A stretch of 64,000 nucleotides of DNA, from assembly GCA_036277095.1 (NCBI GenBank), contig DASUNP010000005.1, positions 411,775-475,774 on the forward strand, written 5' to 3'. Below the pieces are notes generated by a model that did no database searches, was not told where the DNA came from, and was given only the letters and a program-made list of their open reading frames with translations. Each line of letters opens with the position of its first letter. Positions within the stretch are counted from its first letter, which is position 1. Of the stretch, positions 32,765-48,123 are shown one piece after another. The stretch comes from Blastocatellia bacterium. GTDB lineage: Bacteria > Acidobacteriota > Blastocatellia > UBA7656. The position numbers and the translations under genes are program-made.

Positions 32765-33712
32765 GTGGCGAGTCAACGACTGATACCGGCAATCGTGGGG
32801 CCTACGGCTTCGGGCAAAAGTGAGCTTGGCATAAGGCTGGCCCTCGCGAGCGAAGGCGAGATCATAAACCTCGACTCGGTCCAGGTCTATCGCCGCATCC
32901 AGGTTGCCACGGCCAAAGTCTCCGTCGAAGAGCGGCGCGGCGTGCCGCACCACCTGATCGATGTAGTCGAGCCTACCGAGAATTTTACCGCTGGCGAATA
33001 CGCGCGCCTTGCGACCGACGCCTTAGGCGACGTTGAGGCGCGCGGTCGGACGCCTATATTCGTGGGCGGCACAGGCTTTTATTTGCGCGCGCTCGTCTCG
33101 CCTCTGTTTGAAAGCCCCAGGACAGACCTCAGGCTGCGCGAGCGATTGATCGGTGTTGCCGAGCGTCGAGGCAGAGAGCACCTGCACAGACTTCTCAGCC
33201 GCATAGACGCGCGCGCCGCATCGCGGCTACAGCCGCGCGACCTGTCACGCGTCATGCGCGCAATTGAAGTCTTCTTTCAGACGGGCCGAAGAATATCAGA
33301 GTCGCAGCCCGAAGCGCCGCCGCCGCCTGAGTTCGCCGCGCGCGTGCGCGTGATCGCTTTAAGCCCGCCGCGCGACGCGCTCTACGAGCTGATAAACCGG
33401 AGGGCCGAGCTGATGTTTGAAGGCGGGCTTGTAGAAGAAGTCGAGCGGCTGGCGAGCGAGGGCGTCCCCTTAGACGCGAAGGCATTTCAGGCCCACGGCT
33501 ACCGCCGCGTGGTCGAGTACCTCAAGGGCGCGCGCACGCGCGAGGATGCGCTCAACCAGATGAAGCTGGACACGCGCCACTACGCCAAACGCCAGTTTAG
33601 CTGGTGGCGCGCGTGGCCCGGCGTGAAATGGATTTATCGGTTCGGCAACGACCCGAAAGCATTCGATGAGGCACAGGATTATTTGAGATTTGATTCTTCA
33701 AATCTCGAATAA
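32765..33712 (+). CDS. miaA: tRNA dimethylallyltransferase
   Basis: P-loop IVGPTASGKSELG, then DSVQVYRR and HHLIDVVEP motifs. Confidence 0.85.
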   Translation: MASQRLIPAIVGPTASGKSELGIRLALASEGEIINLDSVQVYRRIQVATAKVSVEERRGVPHHLIDVVEPTENFTAGEYARLATDALGDVEARGRTPIFVGGTGFYLRALVSPLFESPRTDLRLRERLIGVAERRGREHLHRLLSRIDARAASRLQPRDLSRVMRAIEVFFQTGRRISESQPEAPPPPEFAARVRVIALSPPRDALYELINRRAELMFEGGLVEEVERLASEGVPLDAKAFQAHGYRRVVEYLKGARTREDALNQMKLDTRHYAKRQFSWWRAWPGVKWIYRFGNDPKAFDEAQDYLRFDSSNLE

Positions 33713-35476
33713 TCACACGAGCCGGGATGCCGATTGGCCGTAATATTGATAAGCACCCCAGGTCGGTCCTTCTTTCATAATCTTATCGCGGGCCTCTGCA
33801 AGGGCGTCGGATAAGAGAGCGCCGCCGAGCGCTCTCTTATAAAATTCTGTGGCGAAAGTCGTGGCCGTCGAGTCTATAACCGGCCAGCCCGTCCCTATGT
33901 AGTTCTGGACCCCACGCTCGAAGAATGCTTCGGCCATCCCCGCCAGCTTTTTATTCGATTCCTGCGCGGTCGGACGCTGTTTTTTGTTCATGACAGCCGA
34001 GAAACAAGCATTTGCGAATACCAGGCGCGGAACCTGGCGAGAGCGAAAAATCTCGCGCGCCGACAATATGCAATTCCTCTTGAATACCCAACCGCTGCGA
34101 TTCGGGTTAGCCTCATCAAAGACGCCGTGGCCCGCGTAGTGTATTACGTCAAACATCTCATTCACGATCAGCGCAAGTATCTCTACGGGGTTGCATTGCT
34201 TAGCGCCGATTCTGGATTCGATTGTAATTTGAAGCCCTCCCCTCTTAGCCAGCTCTTGCTGGAATTCTTCGAGCTGTTTTTTTACGGCCTCACCCTCTTC
34301 GGTCGCGCTGGGGAGCGTGAGATCCAGGTCGTCGTCGGCAGGGTTGGCGATCACCAGGCAGCGGAGCGATTTGTTGACCGGCGGCGCTATGCCCGGCGCT
34401 GAAGAGAGCATCGTGCGAAACTGGCGCGTCAGCTTTAAGTCCGTGCCAAAGTAACTCCGCCGTTGGTTCGGGCCGAAGCAAGCCATCTCCCAGGGGAGCG
34501 AAGCCGTCGTGTTGTCTAAAACCAGGGTCAGGGGCTTGCCCGTTATGAGCCGCTCGAAATCCTCTGGGAAGATATATTTATGCAGCAGCCTTGCGAACTT
34601 CTCCTGGCTCTCGGGGTCTGAATTCATCAAGCTCTCTGCGATGCCCTCGGTGAAGAAGGGCTGCACATCAACTTTACGAATTGGTACTACAGCCTTGTCT
34701 GTCAAAGCCGAAAACTCGAACCCCTCTGCGCCCCGCTCAATCGTTATGCGATTGACAAAACCCCGATCCCCGACGTTGTCTCTCCGGGCCGAGGCTGCGG
34801 GGTTCGCCGTGCCTATCATGTCTACAGACTTCAGCATTTTCACTTCTATGTTCTCGAAAGGCTGATCCTTGACGAAGCCCTCAATTATGCGCGTCAGTTC
34901 TTCGACGCGCTCCTTATTTCTCTCTACCAGGATCAACTCTTTAAGGAATCTTTTCTTCTCGTCGAGGTGGTGCAAGCCGTCGCATATCCCTGAGATCATG
35001 CCTTTGACGGCTTCATCCACTTTCAAACCGCCATCTCCCGAGCCTATTAGAACGGTTGCGAACTTATTGAGCTGAAGAGACGAAATCGCGTAACTGATGT
35101 TCATCACCAGGTAGCGCAGGTCGTCGTAGGAGAACTGCCCGTAATCGCCCATGCCGCCCAGCAGTATCGAACTTGCGGTGATCTGTTTTTGGGTCACGGG
35201 GATGAAGAACAGCTCGCCGAGGTCTCCGCTTATCATCCCGTGCTCGCCCGCCTCTGTTATCCAGTTGTCCATAGCCGCGTCGAGCGCGCCGACTGCTCTG
35301 ATCGGGGCGACGCCTTTATAATGCCCGACGACCACGACCGGAACTGCGATTTGTGTGATATCAGCCCGCGCGATCTTGACCCTAAGCTCCAGCTTGCTGC
35401 CTGCCCCGGGGCCTTGACCCTTCTTCTTCTTATCTGCGGACCCTTTAGTTTGCTGACCGGCTGGTTTAAAAGCCAT
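33713..35476 (-). CDS. CHAT-domain (caspase-like) protease fused to an unassigned Gly-rich N-terminal domain; stand-alone
   Basis: C-terminal ~250 aa carry the CHAT His/Cys dyad context (DVIHYAGHG ... RLVFANACFSA). The N-terminal ~200 aa (VVVVGHYKG, LLGGMGDYG, LIGSGDGG) match no family I recognise. Lys-rich disordered tip. Confidence 0.6.
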   Translation of the reverse strand: MAFKPAGQQTKGSADKKKKGQGPGAGSKLELRVKIARADITQIAVPVVVVGHYKGVAPIRAVGALDAAMDNWITEAGEHGMISGDLGELFFIPVTQKQITASSILLGGMGDYGQFSYDDLRYLVMNISYAISSLQLNKFATVLIGSGDGGLKVDEAVKGMISGICDGLHHLDEKKRFLKELILVERNKERVEELTRIIEGFVKDQPFENIEVKMLKSVDMIGTANPAASARRDNVGDRGFVNRITIERGAEGFEFSALTDKAVVPIRKVDVQPFFTEGIAESLMNSDPESQEKFARLLHKYIFPEDFERLITGKPLTLVLDNTTASLPWEMACFGPNQRRSYFGTDLKLTRQFRTMLSSAPGIAPPVNKSLRCLVIANPADDDLDLTLPSATEEGEAVKKQLEEFQQELAKRGGLQITIESRIGAKQCNPVEILALIVNEMFDVIHYAGHGVFDEANPNRSGWVFKRNCILSAREIFRSRQVPRLVFANACFSAVMNKKQRPTAQESNKKLAGMAEAFFERGVQNYIGTGWPVIDSTATTFATEFYKRALGGALLSDALAEARDKIMKEGPTWGAYQYYGQSASRLV

Positions 35477-35723
35477 GTTCGCCTCCTGTGTTGCGAAAGG
35501 TTAGAATCATGCAACGGCGACCGTGCCATGTTCCTTAATCGTTGGGTTAATCGGCTTAGTCTATACCACATGACGCGAAACAGAGTCTATACATTGCAAG
35601 CAGCATTACACGCGCGAGTGGGCGCTCGCGCCTACCAATACTTGCCGCAATCTGTATAATGAGGCTGGCTTTCGTCAGGTCTTTCGCACGTCGTTTCGGG
35701 ACAGCTTTAACGGAGAGAAGATT

Positions 35724-37448
35724 GTGAAAAAGCTAATCACTCGAATACCCGTCTCGGTTTTGCTGATCGTTACGGTGTCGCTCTCGGCTAGCCTGTCGGT
35801 CGCGGCCCCGCCCCAGGGAGCCGGGCGCGACTGGCCCACTTACGGCGGCACCTTGGACAGTCAGCGATACTCCTCTCTCACTCAGATCAACCGCGCGAAC
35901 GCGTCTCGACTCCAGGTCGCGTGGACTTTTCAAACGGGCTTCTCGACGCCGCAAACGTCATTCGAGTGTACGCCCATAGTCGTCGACGGCGTGATGTACG
36001 TGACTTCGGCCAAAGGCGACGTGTTTGCGCTCCGGGCCGACACGGGAGAGATGCTCTGGCAATACGATCCGCTCGTCGACCTCGCAAGCGTGAAGCTTTG
36101 CTGCGGCATCATCAATCGTGGCGTCGCCGTCAGCCGGGGGCGCGTCTTTATCGCGACGCTCGACGCGCGACTCATAGCCCTGGACGCTCGCACGGGCCAG
36201 GTCGTCAAATCATTCGGCGACGGCGGCGAAGTCAAGATCGCCGACTACACGAAGGGCTACAGCGAGACGGCTGCGCCCGTGGTCTTCGGCGGCAAGATAC
36301 TCATAGGCGTGGCGGGGGGCGAGTTTGAAACGCGAGGCTTCTTTAGCGCTTACGACGAGCAGACGGGGAAGCTTATCTGGCGCTGGCACACCATCCCCGC
36401 TCCCGGTGAGCCGGGCAGCGACACGTGGCCCGACACGGGCGTCTACAAAGTCGGAGGCGCGACGGCCTGGATGACCGCCGCAGTCGATGAGGCCAACAAT
36501 CAGGTGATCTTTGGGACCGGCAATCCCAACCCTGACTTCGACGGGCGCGCGCGTCCGGGCGACAACCTCTACAGTTGTTCAATCGTCGCCTTGGACATCA
36601 CGACTGGAAAGCTCCGGTGGTACTTCCAGCAGGTGAAGCACGATCTTTGGGATTACGATCAATCGTCGTCTCCCGTACTGTTCGACTCTACGATCAATGG
36701 CCGAAGGGTAGAGGCCGTGGGCGCCGCCGGCAAGATAGGCTGGTTCTACATACTCGACCGCAAGACGGGAAAATCCTTGCTCCCGATGCGCGAGATAGAA
36801 GTCCCGCAAGACGCGCGCCAGGCCACAGCCCGGACCCAGGTCGTCCCGGCTGTGCCGCCGTTCGTAGCTCACAAAAACATATTCGCGCCGCCTACGAAAG
36901 CGGGCGTATTGATCTCGCCGGGCCTGAGCGGCGGCAGCGAGTGGAGCCCTCTCGCCTACAGCCCGCAAACGCGCTTTGCCTACATCGCCGCCGTCGACAA
37001 GCCGATGTTTTATACGGTCGAGACGCCCAACCCATTCGGCCTGGTGCTGGGCGGGCTTGCGGTCGTCCCTCCAGAGGTCGAGCCAGTGGGCGCGTTCGTA
37101 GCGATAGATGTGAACACGGGCCTCGTGCGCTGGCGCACGGCGACGAAGCCTCACCCGGTTGGCGGGCTTTGCGCTACAGCGGGAGGTCTGGTCTTCGCGG
37201 GCGAATCGAACGGGATGTTTAATGCGCTGGACGCCCAGACGGGCAAGCGGCTCTGGCAGTTTCAATGCGGCGCGGGTGTCAACGCCGCACCCATGACTTA
37301 TGAGGTGAACGGGCGGCAGTATGTCGCAGTCGCCGCGGGCGGGCTCGCGATGGAGAGCTTGACCAGCGGCCAGGCGGGGATTACCAACTTCCGTCGCGGC
37401 AGCGCCTTGTTCGTATTCGCCTTGCCTGCCACAGAAAGACAGTCCTGA
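35724..37448 (+). CDS. PQQ-dependent dehydrogenase (quinoprotein alcohol/sugar dehydrogenase beta-propeller), secreted
   Basis: Signal peptide and repeated PQQ beta-propeller W-motifs (TGEMLWQYD, TGKLIWRWH, TGKLRWYFQ, TGKRLWQF). GTG start with GGAGAG SD. Confidence 0.75.
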   Translation: MKKLITRIPVSVLLIVTVSLSASLSVAAPPQGAGRDWPTYGGTLDSQRYSSLTQINRANASRLQVAWTFQTGFSTPQTSFECTPIVVDGVMYVTSAKGDVFALRADTGEMLWQYDPLVDLASVKLCCGIINRGVAVSRGRVFIATLDARLIALDARTGQVVKSFGDGGEVKIADYTKGYSETAAPVVFGGKILIGVAGGEFETRGFFSAYDEQTGKLIWRWHTIPAPGEPGSDTWPDTGVYKVGGATAWMTAAVDEANNQVIFGTGNPNPDFDGRARPGDNLYSCSIVALDITTGKLRWYFQQVKHDLWDYDQSSSPVLFDSTINGRRVEAVGAAGKIGWFYILDRKTGKSLLPMREIEVPQDARQATARTQVVPAVPPFVAHKNIFAPPTKAGVLISPGLSGGSEWSPLAYSPQTRFAYIAAVDKPMFYTVETPNPFGLVLGGLAVVPPEVEPVGAFVAIDVNTGLVRWRTATKPHPVGGLCATAGGLVFAGESNGMFNALDAQTGKRLWQFQCGAGVNAAPMTYEVNGRQYVAVAAGGLAMESLTSGQAGITNFRRGSALFVFALPATERQS

Positions 37449-41537: not shown

Positions 41538-43748
41538 ATGATCGAAAAAGATATTATCGCGTTAGCTCCGTACTTGATCGCCGGCTTCATCGGGCTGGTG
41601 ATGCTGATCATTATCTACAAAATCTTCAGCGTCAACGTAGGCCCGACAGAGATCGCAATCAAGGAGCGGCGCTACTTAGGCGCAAAGATGCCGCCGGGCC
41701 GCGTGGTCGCGACCGAAGGCGAGGTCGGCATACAGGCCGACGTGCTCAAGCCCGGCCTCCACATGATCAAGTGGCCGACCGAGCGCGTAGTCCGCAAAGT
41801 GCCTCTGATCGAGATAGGGCCCGACGAGATTGGCATCATCGAAGCCATAGACGGCGAGCCTATGCCTGCGGGAAGGATATTCGCGCCCGACCGCGCTCAA
41901 AACGCGCACAACAATTTCCAGGACCCCATTGCGTTCATCAAGCAGGGCGGCGTTAAGGGCATTCAGCTCCGCACGCTCCCGCCGGGGCTGTGGCCGATTC
42001 ACCCTTACCTGTTCCGCGTCTCTGTAGCAAAGATGACGATCGTCCCGCCTGGCAGAGTAGGCATAGTTACAGCGGCGGACGGCGGGCCGTTGGACGCGGG
42101 CCGCCTTCACGGCAAGGCCATCGACGGTCACCGGAACTTTCAAGACGCGGAGCAGTTCATCGCCTCCGGCGGGCAGAAAGGGCCGCAGGTCGAAATCCTC
42201 ACGCCCGGGACCTATCGCATACTGACGGACTCGGCCCCGATCGAGGGCGGCGCCGAGCGCAAGCCGGGCCTGTTTTTTGTCCGGCTCTACGACGCGACGA
42301 TAATCAACGAGAATAACATCGGGCTGGTCGAAGCTTTAGACGGCGCTCCGCTCGACCCGCGCGATTACGTCGCCGTGCCAATCGAAGGCCACGACAATTT
42401 TCAGGACTGCAACGAGTTCATTCGTCACGGCGGTCAGCGCGGGCCGCAGAAAGACATACTGCTGCCCGGCACATACTACATCAACCCGCTCGTCTTCAAA
42501 GTGATCCCTGAGACCGCAAAGGAGATCAAACCGGGCGAGGTTGCGGTGATCGTGTCAAACGTCGGCAAAGACCCTTCAGAAGAGATACGCCGCGCGATGG
42601 CTGACAAAGTTCGCGAGCGACTTGAGCGCGAAGAGAAGGAGCAGGTCGCAATGTCTGTGGCGCGATTAGACAAGCTCGATACCGAAGATCGCAGCGTCGC
42701 CGAGATTCAAGAAGAGTTGACCCTGGTTGACCCGGCGGACTCGCGGCTGGATGAAGGCGCGCACGAAGCTTACGTTGTGCCCGACGGTTTTCGAGGCATT
42801 CAAGAAACGGTCGTAGGGCCGGGCCGTTACTACGTGAACACCCTGGCCGTAAGCCCGATCGTCATCCCGACTACCAACCAGACGGTCGAGTGGACAGCGG
42901 GCGAGATCGCAAACACGTTCAACCCGTTCGAGGTTATATCGAAAGACGGCTTCACGATGCAGCTCGAAGTCCGCGTGGTCTTCCGCGTCAAGCCCGAAGA
43001 CGCGCCCTTCATGGTCGCGAAGATCGGCTCGATCGATCGGTTGATTCAAAACGTGATGCACCCGCTGATCGATTCCATATTCCGCAACCAGGCGTCGGAA
43101 TCCTCCGCGATGGCTTACTTGCAGAACCGCCACGAAGAGCAGGAACGGGCCGAAGCGCGCGTGCGCGCTCACCTGCTCAAGTATCACGTGGATGTTGTGA
43201 ACGTCTTGATCTGCCACATACACCTGCCCGAAGAGCTGATGAAGACGCAGACGGAAAAGATACTCGCCGAGCAGCGGCAGAACATGTTTAACGCGCAGCG
43301 CGAGGCCGAAGAGAAGCGCATTCAACTCGAAAAGACTCGCGCGCACGCCGACAACCAGAGAGACTTGATGGCGGCAACCGTCGGCGTCGAGATCTCTACC
43401 AAGCGCGCCGAGCAGCGCAAGGCCGAGGGCGAGGGCGAAGCCCATTACATCTCTGCGACGGGCCGCGCCGAGGCCGAAAAAGTTCGCCTGATGGGCGAAG
43501 CGCAGGGCGTGGCTTACGCAGAGCAGGTCAACGCGCTCGGCCCGCAAGGCGTGGCCTTAGTCGAGATACTGAAAGTGATCGGCGAGAAACAAGTTCGCAT
43601 CACGCCTGACGTGATGGCTACGGGCGGCACGGGCGACGGGGCCGGAGGTTTGGGCACGCTGCTCCTGCTGAATCTGTTTCGCGAACGCCTTGGCACAGGT
43701 GCTCAAGCGACTCCGGAGAACGGCTCGCCCGTCCCTGCCAAAAGGTAA
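41538..43748 (+). CDS. SPFH/band-7 (flotillin-like) membrane protein with triplicated ~95-aa insert
   Basis: N-terminal TM. SPFH start (PGLHMIKWP) and SPFH C-terminal part plus flotillin-type EA-rich coiled coil. Between them are three repeats of ...DGxPLxxGR...GHxNFQDxxxFIxxGGxxGPQxxILxPGTYxI(N)P. Confidence 0.65.
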   Translation: MIEKDIIALAPYLIAGFIGLVMLIIIYKIFSVNVGPTEIAIKERRYLGAKMPPGRVVATEGEVGIQADVLKPGLHMIKWPTERVVRKVPLIEIGPDEIGIIEAIDGEPMPAGRIFAPDRAQNAHNNFQDPIAFIKQGGVKGIQLRTLPPGLWPIHPYLFRVSVAKMTIVPPGRVGIVTAADGGPLDAGRLHGKAIDGHRNFQDAEQFIASGGQKGPQVEILTPGTYRILTDSAPIEGGAERKPGLFFVRLYDATIINENNIGLVEALDGAPLDPRDYVAVPIEGHDNFQDCNEFIRHGGQRGPQKDILLPGTYYINPLVFKVIPETAKEIKPGEVAVIVSNVGKDPSEEIRRAMADKVRERLEREEKEQVAMSVARLDKLDTEDRSVAEIQEELTLVDPADSRLDEGAHEAYVVPDGFRGIQETVVGPGRYYVNTLAVSPIVIPTTNQTVEWTAGEIANTFNPFEVISKDGFTMQLEVRVVFRVKPEDAPFMVAKIGSIDRLIQNVMHPLIDSIFRNQASESSAMAYLQNRHEEQERAEARVRAHLLKYHVDVVNVLICHIHLPEELMKTQTEKILAEQRQNMFNAQREAEEKRIQLEKTRAHADNQRDLMAATVGVEISTKRAEQRKAEGEGEAHYISATGRAEAEKVRLMGEAQGVAYAEQVNALGPQGVALVEILKVIGEKQVRITPDVMATGGTGDGAGGLGTLLLLNLFRERLGTGAQATPENGSPVPAKR

Positions 43749-46401: not shown

Positions 46402-48123
46402 TTAAACCTTGGCGAGCGTCAGCCCCTGCTGGTCCTGATATTTTCCGCCCCTGTCGCTGTAACTCGTCTCACACTCTTCGTCGGATTCAAAGAAGAGAAT
46501 CTGTATAAAGCCTTCTTCGGCGTAAAGCCGCACGGGAAGGTTCGCGGCGTTGTACAGCTCGACGACGAGTCGACCGCACCAGTTGGCTTCCAAAGGAGTT
46601 GTATTCGCCATCAACCCGCAATTGCTAACAAAAACTCCCGCCTCGATAGCAAAGTTTCCGGCTTCGGGCACAGTAAGGCAATAAACGTCATGGGTGCCGC
46701 CAACTTCAGAGACGGACAGTACCTTATGGTTCTTCTGCGGCTCGCCTCGAAAGGCTTTTATGACCTCCGGGAATCTGCGAAATACCGAGCGATCACATTG
46801 TAATAACCGGGCAGCCCCCCGGATCGAGCCTGTTTCATCAAGGGCCGCTCTTACGACCTCTTCGTTTATTTCGAATCGCGTATTGAGTTGGCGCGCGATG
46901 CTGCGTTGCTTCTCGCGGCGCTCTATGTCGACGGATGCCCAATACTGTTTTGACTTTTCGGAAACTTCTTCACGGCGCTCCGGATGATTTGTCCAGAAGC
47001 TTTCTTGCCTCGTCCGCTGTTTGGCGCGCTCCGCTTCTGTCCAGTAGGCTCTCCGCTGATCACAGAGTCGTATACGTGCCTCTCGATAGGCATCATCCTT
47101 CCAAAACTTGCGCGTTCTTTCTGACTGTAACTTGCTATAACGAGCGCGCCACTCTTCGCTCTGTCGCAAACGATCAAAGGCCGCGCGGATCGACTCGCTG
47201 TGTTCTCGGGGATCGAAATCGGCTCCGTAGCTTATGCAGTTGTGATAGCGAATATGCTCGCCGGCATTCATCCGTGTGATGTTCAGCGGTATGTTGTTGG
47301 TCCGATCATTATCGATGTGGTGACGATGTGTGCCAGGAGAATCTTCATAAATACCATTTCGAAGATTCCACTCATCGGCCAGGCGGTGCGTAGGAATCAA
47401 ATGACCGTTGATCGGTTGATAAACCATCTCATATCCACGATGAAGTTGACGATACAACGGCATGAGCGAATCACCTGGGCGCAGATCATGGGCCTGAACC
47501 ATTCGCCCATCTCGACGGATGAATTCATGGTCGGGAGTGCAAAGAATAGGTTTATCATTATCAAGCACTATCTTTATCAAAGAATCACGCCCAATATACC
47601 TTGGGTTATCCAGAAGCGAGACGATAATCCGTCCGTTAGGCCCTACGCTGTATCCCCAAAATAACTCGCCCTTTTCAGCCCGACAGGCCATCTCTTCCAA
47701 TGTCGGCGATGTGCCATCAACAAGCTCAACGCGCGTGTCCCCGCGAAAACATCTCGCGTAAGTCGATTTTCCGATCGCGAGCGCCGTTACATTGCGGGGT
47801 ATGTTGAACCGCTCGATCGTGACCCCGAGCGCGTAAGAGTGCGGTGGCAACAGCCAGTACTCGGAGCCGTCATCCGCACGGCGAATAGGCACATTCAGCA
47901 GACTGTTCGGGTCGAAGTTCTTCGGGTCGATCTCGGTCCCTGTGACGGGGGAGAAGACTTTGAACTCGTCGCGCGCCAACCGGCAGTCGTAACCGTAGCT
48001 CGACAGCCCGCAGCTAATAATCCGCCTGTCATCTACGCGGCGCACCAGGCGCTCTTCGTACGGATTGATAAGCCCCTCATCGCGGCACATGCGCTTAATC
48101 CAACCATCGGACTTGATTGACAT
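46402..48123 (-). CDS. dcd: dCTP deaminase interrupted by an intein (precursor 573 aa; exteins 124 + 72 aa)
   Basis: N-extein ...NIPRNVTALAIGKSTYAR and C-extein CGLMANTTP...GRLVVELYNAANLPVRLYAEEGFIQILFFE...YQDQQG align with E. coli Dcd (...LDGRSSLAR|LGLMVHV...[29 protein letters not shown]...YRNQQG). A 377-aa insert lies at the conserved AR|(L/C)GL position. Confidence 0.85.
   Translation of the reverse strand: MSIKSDGWIKRMCRDEGLINPYEERLVRRVDDRRIISCGLSSYGYDCRLARDEFKVFSPVTGTEIDPKNFDPNSLLNVPIRRADDGSEYWLLPPHSYALGVTIERFNIPRNVTALAIGKSTYARCFRGDTRVELVDGTSPTLEEMACRAEKGELFWGYSVGPNGRIIVSLLDNPRYIGRDSLIKIVLDNDKPILCTPDHEFIRRDGRMVQAHDLRPGDSLMPLYRQLHRGYEMVYQPINGHLIPTHRLADEWNLRNGIYEDSPGTHRHHIDNDRTNNIPLNITRMNAGEHIRYHNCISYGADFDPREHSESIRAAFDRLRQSEEWRARYSKLQSERTRKFWKDDAYREARIRLCDQRRAYWTEAERAKQRTRQESFWTNHPERREEVSEKSKQYWASVDIERREKQRSIARQLNTRFEINEEVVRAALDETGSIRGAARLLQCDRSVFRRFPEVIKAFRGEPQKNHKVLSVSEVGGTHDVYCLTVPEAGNFAIEAGVFVSNCGLMANTTPLEANWCGRLVVELYNAANLPVRLYAEEGFIQILFFESDEECETSYSDRGGKYQDQQGLTLAKV
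46621..47751 (-). mobile_element. Intein with HNH homing-endonuclease domain inside dcd
   Basis: Block A CFRGDTRVELVDG. Block B ILCTPDHEF. HNH motif THRHHIDNDRTNNIPLNITRMNAGEHIRYHN. Blocks F/G VYCLTVPEAGNFAIEAGVFVSN followed by the +1 Cys. Boundaries were verified codon by codon. Confidence 0.8.

Follow-up and report, generated by a model that had tools for sequence, protein, structure and literature searches.

One SAVED-based system is the only example to date of a cascade in which a sensor-bearing CHAT protease activates a caspase, and sensing by macro domains is known from type II Thoeris. In the SAVED-based system, a type III-B CRISPR/CBASS hybrid of Haliangium ochraceum described by Steens et al., cA3 leads SAVED-CHAT to form filaments in which CHAT is active, and the active protease cleaves and activates the promiscuous C14 protease PCaspase (10.1101/2023.06.23.546230). 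Type II Thoeris pairs TIR with a Macro-domain effector that senses His-ADPR (10.1101/2024.10.24.620036), and type IV Thoeris pairs TIR with a caspase-like protease activated by N7-cADPR (10.64898/2025.12.03.692087). Borvo (BovA), a single-gene CHAT-protease anti-phage system, provides a precedent for defense by one CHAT gene (10.1101/2024.10.26.620412), and alpha/beta-hydrolase-caspase pairings accompanied by TIR and SLATT have been described in NTP-dependent conflict systems (Kaur et al. 2020; PMC7159879). Here we describe a Blastocatellia gene whose 587-aa product joins a macro-fold, Peptidase_M17_N-like domain to a CHAT cysteine protease, as seen from open reading frame (ORF) and Pfam analyses. 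The gene occupies positions 33713..35476 of the minus strand (ATG start, TGA stop) in a 64,000-nucleotide stretch, hereafter the window, of contig DASUNP010000005.1 (positions 411,775 to 475,774; assembly GCA_036277095.1). An identical protein is on record (P0001, ‘CHAT domain-containing protein [Blastocatellia bacterium]’) from a 475-kb contig of a metagenome-assembled genome (MAG).

These systems are the closest known counterparts of the window protein, which differs from all of them. Unlike SAVED-CHAT, it has no SAVED domain by Pfam and carries a putative sensor of macro-fold/M17_N type instead; its match to the PADLOC SAVED_CHAT profile (E 0.018) covers the CHAT catalytic core only. No CD-NTase or Cas10 gene lies nearby, most relatives add a lipase-like domain, and the linked C14 protease is absent from the window, whereas it is present at 41 of 80 family loci by hidden Markov model (HMM) search and in five of nine relatives at the same chromosomal site. 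In contrast to Thoeris, TIR is missing from the window (a TIR-TPR-S query gave no match) and from most family loci, and we found no described Thoeris type with a macro-CHAT effector in the literature. BovA is the top PADLOC match (E 6.2e-6 for the window protein and 5e-10 for a longer family member), but the match is limited to about 120-140 of 711 profile positions (524-643 for the window protein), within the catalytic core, and the N-terminal architectures are unrelated. The systems of Kaur et al. resemble the family in their obligatory caspase-superfamily peptidase and alpha/beta-hydrolase, in TIR and SLATT components and in effector swapping, but they are built on vWA-MoxR, iSTAND or GTPase cores, none of which was seen here, and PMC7159879 makes no mention of CHAT or of a macro-fold fusion of this kind. 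The regulatory modules also differ from those of Craspase (Cas7-11 with the TPR-CHAT protein Csx29), which are TPR/Cas7-11 and RNA in a CRISPR context that is lacking here, and from that of separase, which is securin. As opposed to bacterial gasdermin systems, the immediate neighbors are miaA and a pyrroloquinoline quinone (PQQ) dehydrogenase gene. We found no paper on a fusion of a macro-fold/M17_N domain with a cysteine protease, and searches for CHAT with Peptidase_M17_N, for CHAT with a macrodomain and a caspase operon, and for orthocaspases in Acidobacteria or Nitrospira returned no description of a macro-fold-CHAT family within an incomplete coverage of the literature. The family thus appears to be undescribed, although sensor-CHAT initiator proteases as a kind are already known.

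Our preferred interpretation, held with roughly even confidence, is that the gene encodes a ligand-gated initiator protease with a macro-fold sensor and with no linked executioner in the window. The CHAT region (residues 241-587; 33716..34756, on the minus strand like all gene segments given below) comprises an N-terminal subdomain and a caspase-fold catalytic core, and matches Pfam CHAT (PF12770) over residues 293-570 (E 8.5e-30; 104.6 bits against a cut-off of 24). A first-pass annotation, made from the sequence without database searches, had pointed to the context of a CHAT His...Cys dyad in the motifs IHYAGHG (residues 445-451) and LVFANACFS (residues 485-493), and a 31-member alignment bears this out: neither H446 nor H450 varies, and every full-length sequence has C491, which only the truncated P0112 lacks. 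The predicted catalytic residues are His450 of the ‘GHG’ motif (codon 34127..34129) and Cys491 of the ‘ANAC’ motif (codon 34004..34006), within a region that has a caspase/separase-like fold. Two further segments of the N-terminal subdomain, PWEM (328-331) and RQFRT (351-355), are also invariant. We considered RQFRT as a cleavage site but did not adopt this reading because the structure model places the segment in a beta-strand that matches a generic strand of the CHAT N-terminal subdomain in the Pfam consensus. The protein has no transmembrane or other hydrophobic segment (maximum Kyte-Doolittle hydrophobicity over 19 residues 1.37) and is predicted to be soluble and cytoplasmic. Taken together, the sequence features predict a catalytically competent clan-CD, caspase-fold CHAT protease.

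The N-terminal domain (residues 29-215; 34832..35392) had been described in the first-pass annotation as fitting no known family. It is not without a family, as Peptidase_M17_N (PF02789) matches residues 49-174 with 30.3 bits against a gathering cut-off of 23.4, and relatives score 32-46 bits. The resemblance to M17 leucyl aminopeptidases (LAPs) extends to the fold, but not to the rest of the enzyme: Pfam finds no Peptidase_M17 catalytic domain in the protein, scores from NCBIfam LAP models (19-20 bits) fall far below the cut-offs of 415-468 and come from the N-domain alone, the third loop is Gly-rich and macro-like, and the partner domain is a cysteine protease. Synteny of the gene is confined to a narrow Blastocatellia subclade, so that the domain does not mark a housekeeping enzyme family with synteny kept across core genomes, which would have spoken against the first-pass reading. 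A profile of the N-domain searched against PDB sequences retrieved LAPs (E 5e-4 and 3e-3) and, marginally, the macro-like protein TTHA0132 (E 0.097), with ‘vvrGDITqv’ opposite ‘VVQGDITEF’ and ‘vliGsGeGnL’ opposite ‘LLGTGVGGL’; the full-length protein had no PDB match by sequence, and only the fold search was informative. The fold matches both LAP N-domains and ADP-ribose (ADPr)-binding macro domains. The domain is more distant from ThsA Macro than from LAP N-domains and from domains of MacroD/macroH2A type.

The most conserved positions of the N-domain fall in three Gly-rich loops (G51/G55/P58; G108-M109-G110/G113/F115; G145/G147/G149/L151). In AlphaFold2 models these loops follow beta-strands, at the C-terminal ends of the strands, as the first-pass annotation had supposed from the hydrophobic stretches that precede the glycines, and Gly-rich loop 2 (GSGDGG) is present. 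We take the three loops to be the positions that hold the diphosphate and ribose of ADP-ribose in macro domains. An ‘R-[GA]-D-I-T’ motif at residues 37-41 (RADIT here, RGDIT in many homologs) resembles the macro-domain GDIT. The domain most likely acts as a regulatory or sensor module. The earlier suggestion of a Rossmann-like, LOG/SLOG- or macro-like ligand-binding module is upheld for a macro fold with conserved Gly-rich loops, whereas ligand binding itself is a presumed function. The domain is flanked by a Lys/Gly-rich tail (residues 1-28; 35393..35476) that is predicted to be disordered, with a predicted local distance difference test (pLDDT) score <50 at residues 1-25, and varies across homologs, and by an interdomain linker of variable length (residues 216-240; 34757..34831; pLDDT <50 at residues 223-237) that coincides with indel-rich alignment columns. 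In the alignment the tail takes the position held, in longer family members, by the linker after the lipase domain.

The gene stands alone at its locus, as first described, but this state is secondary. Nine close relatives, the window counted (69-76% identical), occupy a site with the order PQQ dehydrogenase, variable position, CHAT, miaA and TerC. In five of them (P0003, P0010/L081, P0002/L083, P0012/L085 and P0013/L086), the variable position holds a C14 caspase gene encoding 297-302 aa that ends 24-40 nt ahead of the CHAT start. It is absent from the other four (the window, L001, L082 and L084), all of which retain an intact CHAT gene. The 247-nt spacer of the window, when reverse-complemented, begins with 195 nt (35529..35723, the non-coding region next to the divergent PQQ dehydrogenase gene) that are about 85-90% identical to the PQQ-C14 intergenic region of L083 and L085 and still include the former C14 Shine-Dalgarno sequence (TTAAGGAA). 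Alignments with relatives identify the remainder (35477..35528) as a deletion scar. It comprises a short junction that matches nothing in the relatives and, immediately ahead of the CHAT ATG, the conserved ribosome-binding region between C14 and CHAT (CACAGGAGGCGAAC); the last ~25 nt of the spacer correspond to the C14-CHAT intercistronic region and CHAT start of the relatives. The ~0.9-kb C14 ORF of the relatives is missing at this scar, and HMM and tblastn searches found no C14 remnants in the spacer, where only flanking non-coding homology is left. Since the spacer joins the PQQ-C14 upstream region to the C14-CHAT intercistronic end, the C14 ORF was excised cleanly. The caspase of the window was therefore lost by a clean deletion that left the CHAT gene directly behind the former operon upstream region, and the site ancestrally held an operon of two genes, C14 caspase and CHAT.

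One alternative is that the window gene, having lost its lipase domain as well as the partner caspase, is a decaying relic without function. The two candidate executioner modules are indeed absent: neither a C14 caspase nor a lipase-domain homolog was found anywhere in the 64 kb by tblastn and HMM searches, and no substitute is evident there, as TIR-TPR-S, SIR2, patatin, C11, PG_binding-GH19, TPR-S and FRG proteins had no matches in a six-frame translation of the window. We nonetheless regard decay as very improbable. The ORF of 587 codons is unbroken, and none of the residues invariant in the family, the dyad included, has been lost from it; the promoter-proximal region and ribosome-binding site are retained; and the gene is intact in all four C14-less genomes or contigs. 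Among the C14-less copies, the pairwise ratio of nonsynonymous to synonymous substitution rates (dN/dS) is 0.11-0.27 in both domains, at dS values of ~0.8-1.3 that are near saturation, and pairs with the C14-carrying L081 give similar ratios. Such purifying selection means that the gene is maintained rather than decaying. We have high confidence in this account of the anatomy and evolutionary history of the gene.

A word-indexed search retrieved 296 homologs of the protein, nearly all annotated as M17_N+CHAT, and 465 relatives were found among 185,579 genomes, sampled at one genome per species (~0.25%), with a patchy distribution across phyla that takes in Acidobacteriota, Nitrospira, Deltaproteobacteria/Syntrophia, Burkholderiaceae, Hymenobacter and one Chlorobi. 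A word-indexed search with the N-domain profile gave only four proteins, all fragments or truncated members, which left other architectures out of sight, and was replaced by an exhaustive HMM search that yielded 873 clusters (50% identity) at E<=1e-10 and 1,989 at E<=1e-3, the weaker tail of which may include true LAPs. In all proteins scanned, the macro-fold domain came together with CHAT. No other effector was found fused to it: all 10 of the odd-length matches sampled carry CHAT, and there is thus no evidence for a promiscuous sensor module.

Architectures and neighbors were counted at 80 loci (given L numbers here) by our own ORF calling and clustering. Most members have 1,040-1,130 aa and carry, ahead of the macro-fold domain and CHAT, an alpha/beta-hydrolase domain of LCAT/PGAP1/DUF7379 type that is lipase-like, with an ‘AHSMGG’ nucleophile elbow in 45 of 53 long ORFs; this long form with a C14 gene upstream is the commonest architecture. 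The short form (575-635 aa), to which the window gene belongs, makes up one Blastocatellia and Pyrinomonadaceae clade in a rough neighbor-joining tree built without bootstrap, and this clade adjoins long-form Pyrinomonadaceae sequences. Because the short forms sit beside long-form Pyrinomonadaceae, the tree indicates that the lipase domain was lost in the short clade and that the window copy belongs to a derived lineage. The family mostly carries a fused lipase-like domain, which also bears on the one-gene unit first proposed. Long forms include L035 (CP092081.1, 656937-674688), from a chromosome-level record of a Nitrospira sp. UBC2 MAG. Two MAGs each hold two paralogous macro-CHAT copies on separate contigs (L012/L019 in CAVSTX01; L022/L023 in JBAWGU01). 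One 1220-aa protein, P0226, contains a macro-fold domain (57-259), CHAT (389-685) and a second, Peptidase_C25-like region (896-1213), and may be a single-chain version of a two-protease arrangement.

The sole neighbor conserved across phyla is a Peptidase_C14 caspase of 260-300 aa (Pfam E 1e-28 to 1e-36; PADLOC ‘caspase’), encoded directly upstream on the same strand at about 20-250 nt from the macro-CHAT gene. Its His and Cys are invariant in 33 of 33 sequences. Macro-CHAT genes are thus frequently paired in an operon with a gene for a second clan-CD protease whose catalytic residues are intact, and are occasionally paired with genes for NAD-consuming signaling enzymes. In Hymenobacter the C14 is fused to Amidase_2, within a protein of ~950 aa that joins an Amidase_2 (PGRP-like) domain, ~380 aa without a Pfam match and C14 (L063:3573-6413; also L043, L058, L075 and L079), and in the same loci the CHAT gene is followed downstream by genes for an extracytoplasmic function (ECF) sigma factor and for a 305-aa protein without annotation. 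A tandem C14 pair, preceded by an FRG-domain gene, lies upstream of a short-form macro-CHAT at L013:1563-3205 and L068:6234-7902, and an FRG-domain gene lies upstream of one C14 copy at L010.

At C14-less loci, we counted alternative partners in the upstream same-strand position or alongside. These were a Peptidase_C11 clostripain (L016, L034), TPR-S+patatin (L020), a SIR2_2 protein that resembles defense-type SIR2 in PADLOC (L037), TIR_2+TPR-S with a TIR that resembles ThsB in PADLOC (L055, and a partial copy at L051), PG_binding_1+GH19 (L051, L054) and TPR-S (L054). A small ORF upstream at L035 matches TIR_2 only weakly (23.4 bits against a cut-off of 28). In Nitrospira, a SLATT_3/DUF4231 gene followed by a gene for a 658-aa TPR-S protein lies upstream of C14. 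Peptidoglycan-binding hydrolases are encoded downstream at L076 and L077. Residues 28-117 of one such 658-aa TPR-S protein (L027:3132-5105; cluster C18, Nitrospira) give a weak match to PADLOC ‘Effector (TIR)’ (E 1.9e-4); if this match is real, TIR linkage would extend beyond the two or three loci counted. Short-form macro-CHAT genes without a fused lipase can be followed, on the same strand, by a gene for a PF04185 phosphoesterase of the phospholipase C/acid phosphatase family (L006:9792-11294, with equivalents at L008, L009, L012, L013 and L068), which could be a replacement effector or lineage synteny. The remaining neighbors are lineage-specific housekeeping genes. No gasdermin-like neighbor cluster is conserved across the 80 loci, although gasdermin-specific profiles were not run on every ORF, and neither a CD-NTase nor type III CRISPR occurs among the annotated neighbors in the window or at related loci.

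Conflict systems characteristically combine a core that stays constant with lethal-looking modules that are exchanged. The TIR, SIR2, TPR-S, SLATT, patatin and second-protease genes that adjoin relatives thus suggest a conflict or defense role for the family, which looks like a variable bacterial self-defense or cell-death cassette. This agrees with the signaling or defense role first suggested for the window gene as far as its relatives are concerned; the window itself contains no defense island.

Under the ligand-gated initiator protease that we favor, a small ligand would bind the Gly-rich cleft of the macro-fold domain and turn on the CHAT protease, possibly through oligomerization as in SAVED-CHAT. 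Our best guess for the ligand, held with less confidence than the scheme as a whole, is a NAD-derived nucleotide of ADP-ribose type, because of the macro fold and the TIR or SIR2 neighbors of some relatives. In relatives that have lethal partners, CHAT would activate these by cleavage, be it the adjacent pro-caspase, the fused lipase or another protein, and a cell under stress or infection would stop growing or die. As the window genome has no linked executioner, its initiator would act directly on cellular targets, as proposed for Borvo, or on a substrate encoded elsewhere. A more ambitious version of this scheme, which we consider quite improbable, would make the macro-fold-CHAT family an undescribed class of nucleotide-gated initiator proteases that sense ADP-ribose-type molecules and control a multi-arm death programme. 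The ligand could then come from linked TIR or SIR2 partners, from NAD+ breakdown or from phage ADP-ribosyltransferases; the arms would be C14 or C11 caspase-like executioners, the fused lipase, peptidoglycan hydrolases and SLATT pores; and the window copy would be a minimal ‘ADPr alarm’, a self-sufficient protease without a dedicated signal synthase or executioner.

The observations that speak against a ligand-gated initiator protease concern both the sensor domain and the genomic setting. The canonical macro motifs are N-A-A-N, a G-G-G loop and a G-[IV]-[YF]-G loop. In the N-domain, NAAN and GGG are absent, replaced by V-G-H-Y and A-V-G-A-L-D, and this makes hydrolase activity of the domain unlikely. 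Pfam Macro (PF01661) has no match at E<=0.1, and several homologs have N or S where the GDIT-like motif has its Asp. LAP N-domains, the nearest relatives by sequence, are not known as nucleotide sensors. The interdomain geometry of the AlphaFold2 model is uncertain (predicted template modeling score, pTM, 0.61). An alternative is that the N-domain is an oligomerization or protein-docking scaffold, as in the hexameric M17 aminopeptidases, rather than a small-molecule sensor. The protease would then be activated by protein partners such as the TPR-S proteins or the caspase, and a role in defense would still be possible. LAP N-domains are the best sequence matches in Pfam, NCBIfam and the PDB profile search, the macro motifs for catalysis and binding are lacking, and TPR-S ‘sensor’ proteins are encoded beside several relatives, so sensing could reside elsewhere; we nevertheless consider a scaffold unlikely.

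As for the setting, most family loci lack TIR, SIR2 and cyclase genes, so that a dedicated signal generator is usually absent. The surroundings of the CHAT gene in the window are housekeeping genes, PADLOC recognizes only the catalytic core, and, with dS near saturation, some of the signal of purifying selection may date from before the caspase was lost. No relatives were found in IMG/VR viral contigs. This absence, together with the fixed core-genome location and the ECF sigma neighbors in Hymenobacter, would fit a protease with a housekeeping or regulatory role, a stable part of the core genome in Blastocatellia and no immune or death device. Such a protease would degrade or process a particular cellular factor in a regulated way, for example in sigma/anti-sigma or stress signaling like the CHAT-domain anti-sigma factor DdvA. 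We find this explanation improbable, given that the family is patchy across phyla at so low a frequency, that its partners vary in the manner typical of conflict systems (from TIR, SIR2, TPR-S, SLATT and patatin to second clan-CD proteases and peptidoglycan hydrolases) and that the partner gene has been gained and lost recurrently.

The immediate surroundings of the gene are as first annotated, with the CHAT gene on the minus strand between miaA (IPPT, E 6e-77; 32765-33712, plus strand) and the PQQ dehydrogenase gene (E 4.5e-123; 35724-37448, plus strand), which is divergent from it across the spacer. The convergent stop codons of miaA and the CHAT gene touch at 33712/33713 with zero bases between them, and no terminator-like hairpin was found there. 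A sigma-70 promoter scan of the spacer, which is uninformative for an acidobacterium, gave nothing above chance. Antisense ORFs within the CHAT gene (34127-34402, 34509-34865, 35189-35659 and 35257-35571) were treated as by-products of GC-rich sequence. The nucleotide cyclases that the first-pass annotation proposed to look for are not there: no cyclase, TIR, gasdermin or CRISPR gene lies near the CHAT gene in the window, whose flanking genes encode BshC, DHDPS, fmt, HtpX, TerC, miaA, a TonB-dependent receptor, an SPFH protein and an M64 peptidase. A 736-aa protein (41538-43748, plus strand) has an SPFH/Band 7 domain at residues 419-591 only and no assignment for its N-terminal 400 aa. A 573-aa ORF (46402-48123, minus strand) appears to encode a dCTP deaminase interrupted by an intein, as residues 3-125 match a dCTP deaminase-like domain (PF22769) and residues 141-501 an intein splicing domain (PF14890).

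The window copy is a doubly reduced, orphaned gene, the least complete representative of its family, and we infer its function. The family itself spans hundreds to about two thousand clusters at 50% identity that join a macro-fold module to CHAT and usually also to a lipase and another protease of clan CD. Should the macro-fold domain prove to be a receptor for nucleotides, NAD-derived immune signaling would gain a protease-cascade output, closely paralleling in bacteria the division of caspases into initiators and executioners. The sites that are near-isogenic except for the caspase gene amount to a natural experiment, in that they present the putative initiator protease kept under selection alone, and they make the role of CHAT without an executioner directly testable. 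The macro-fold-CHAT family is thus a good target for experimental work.

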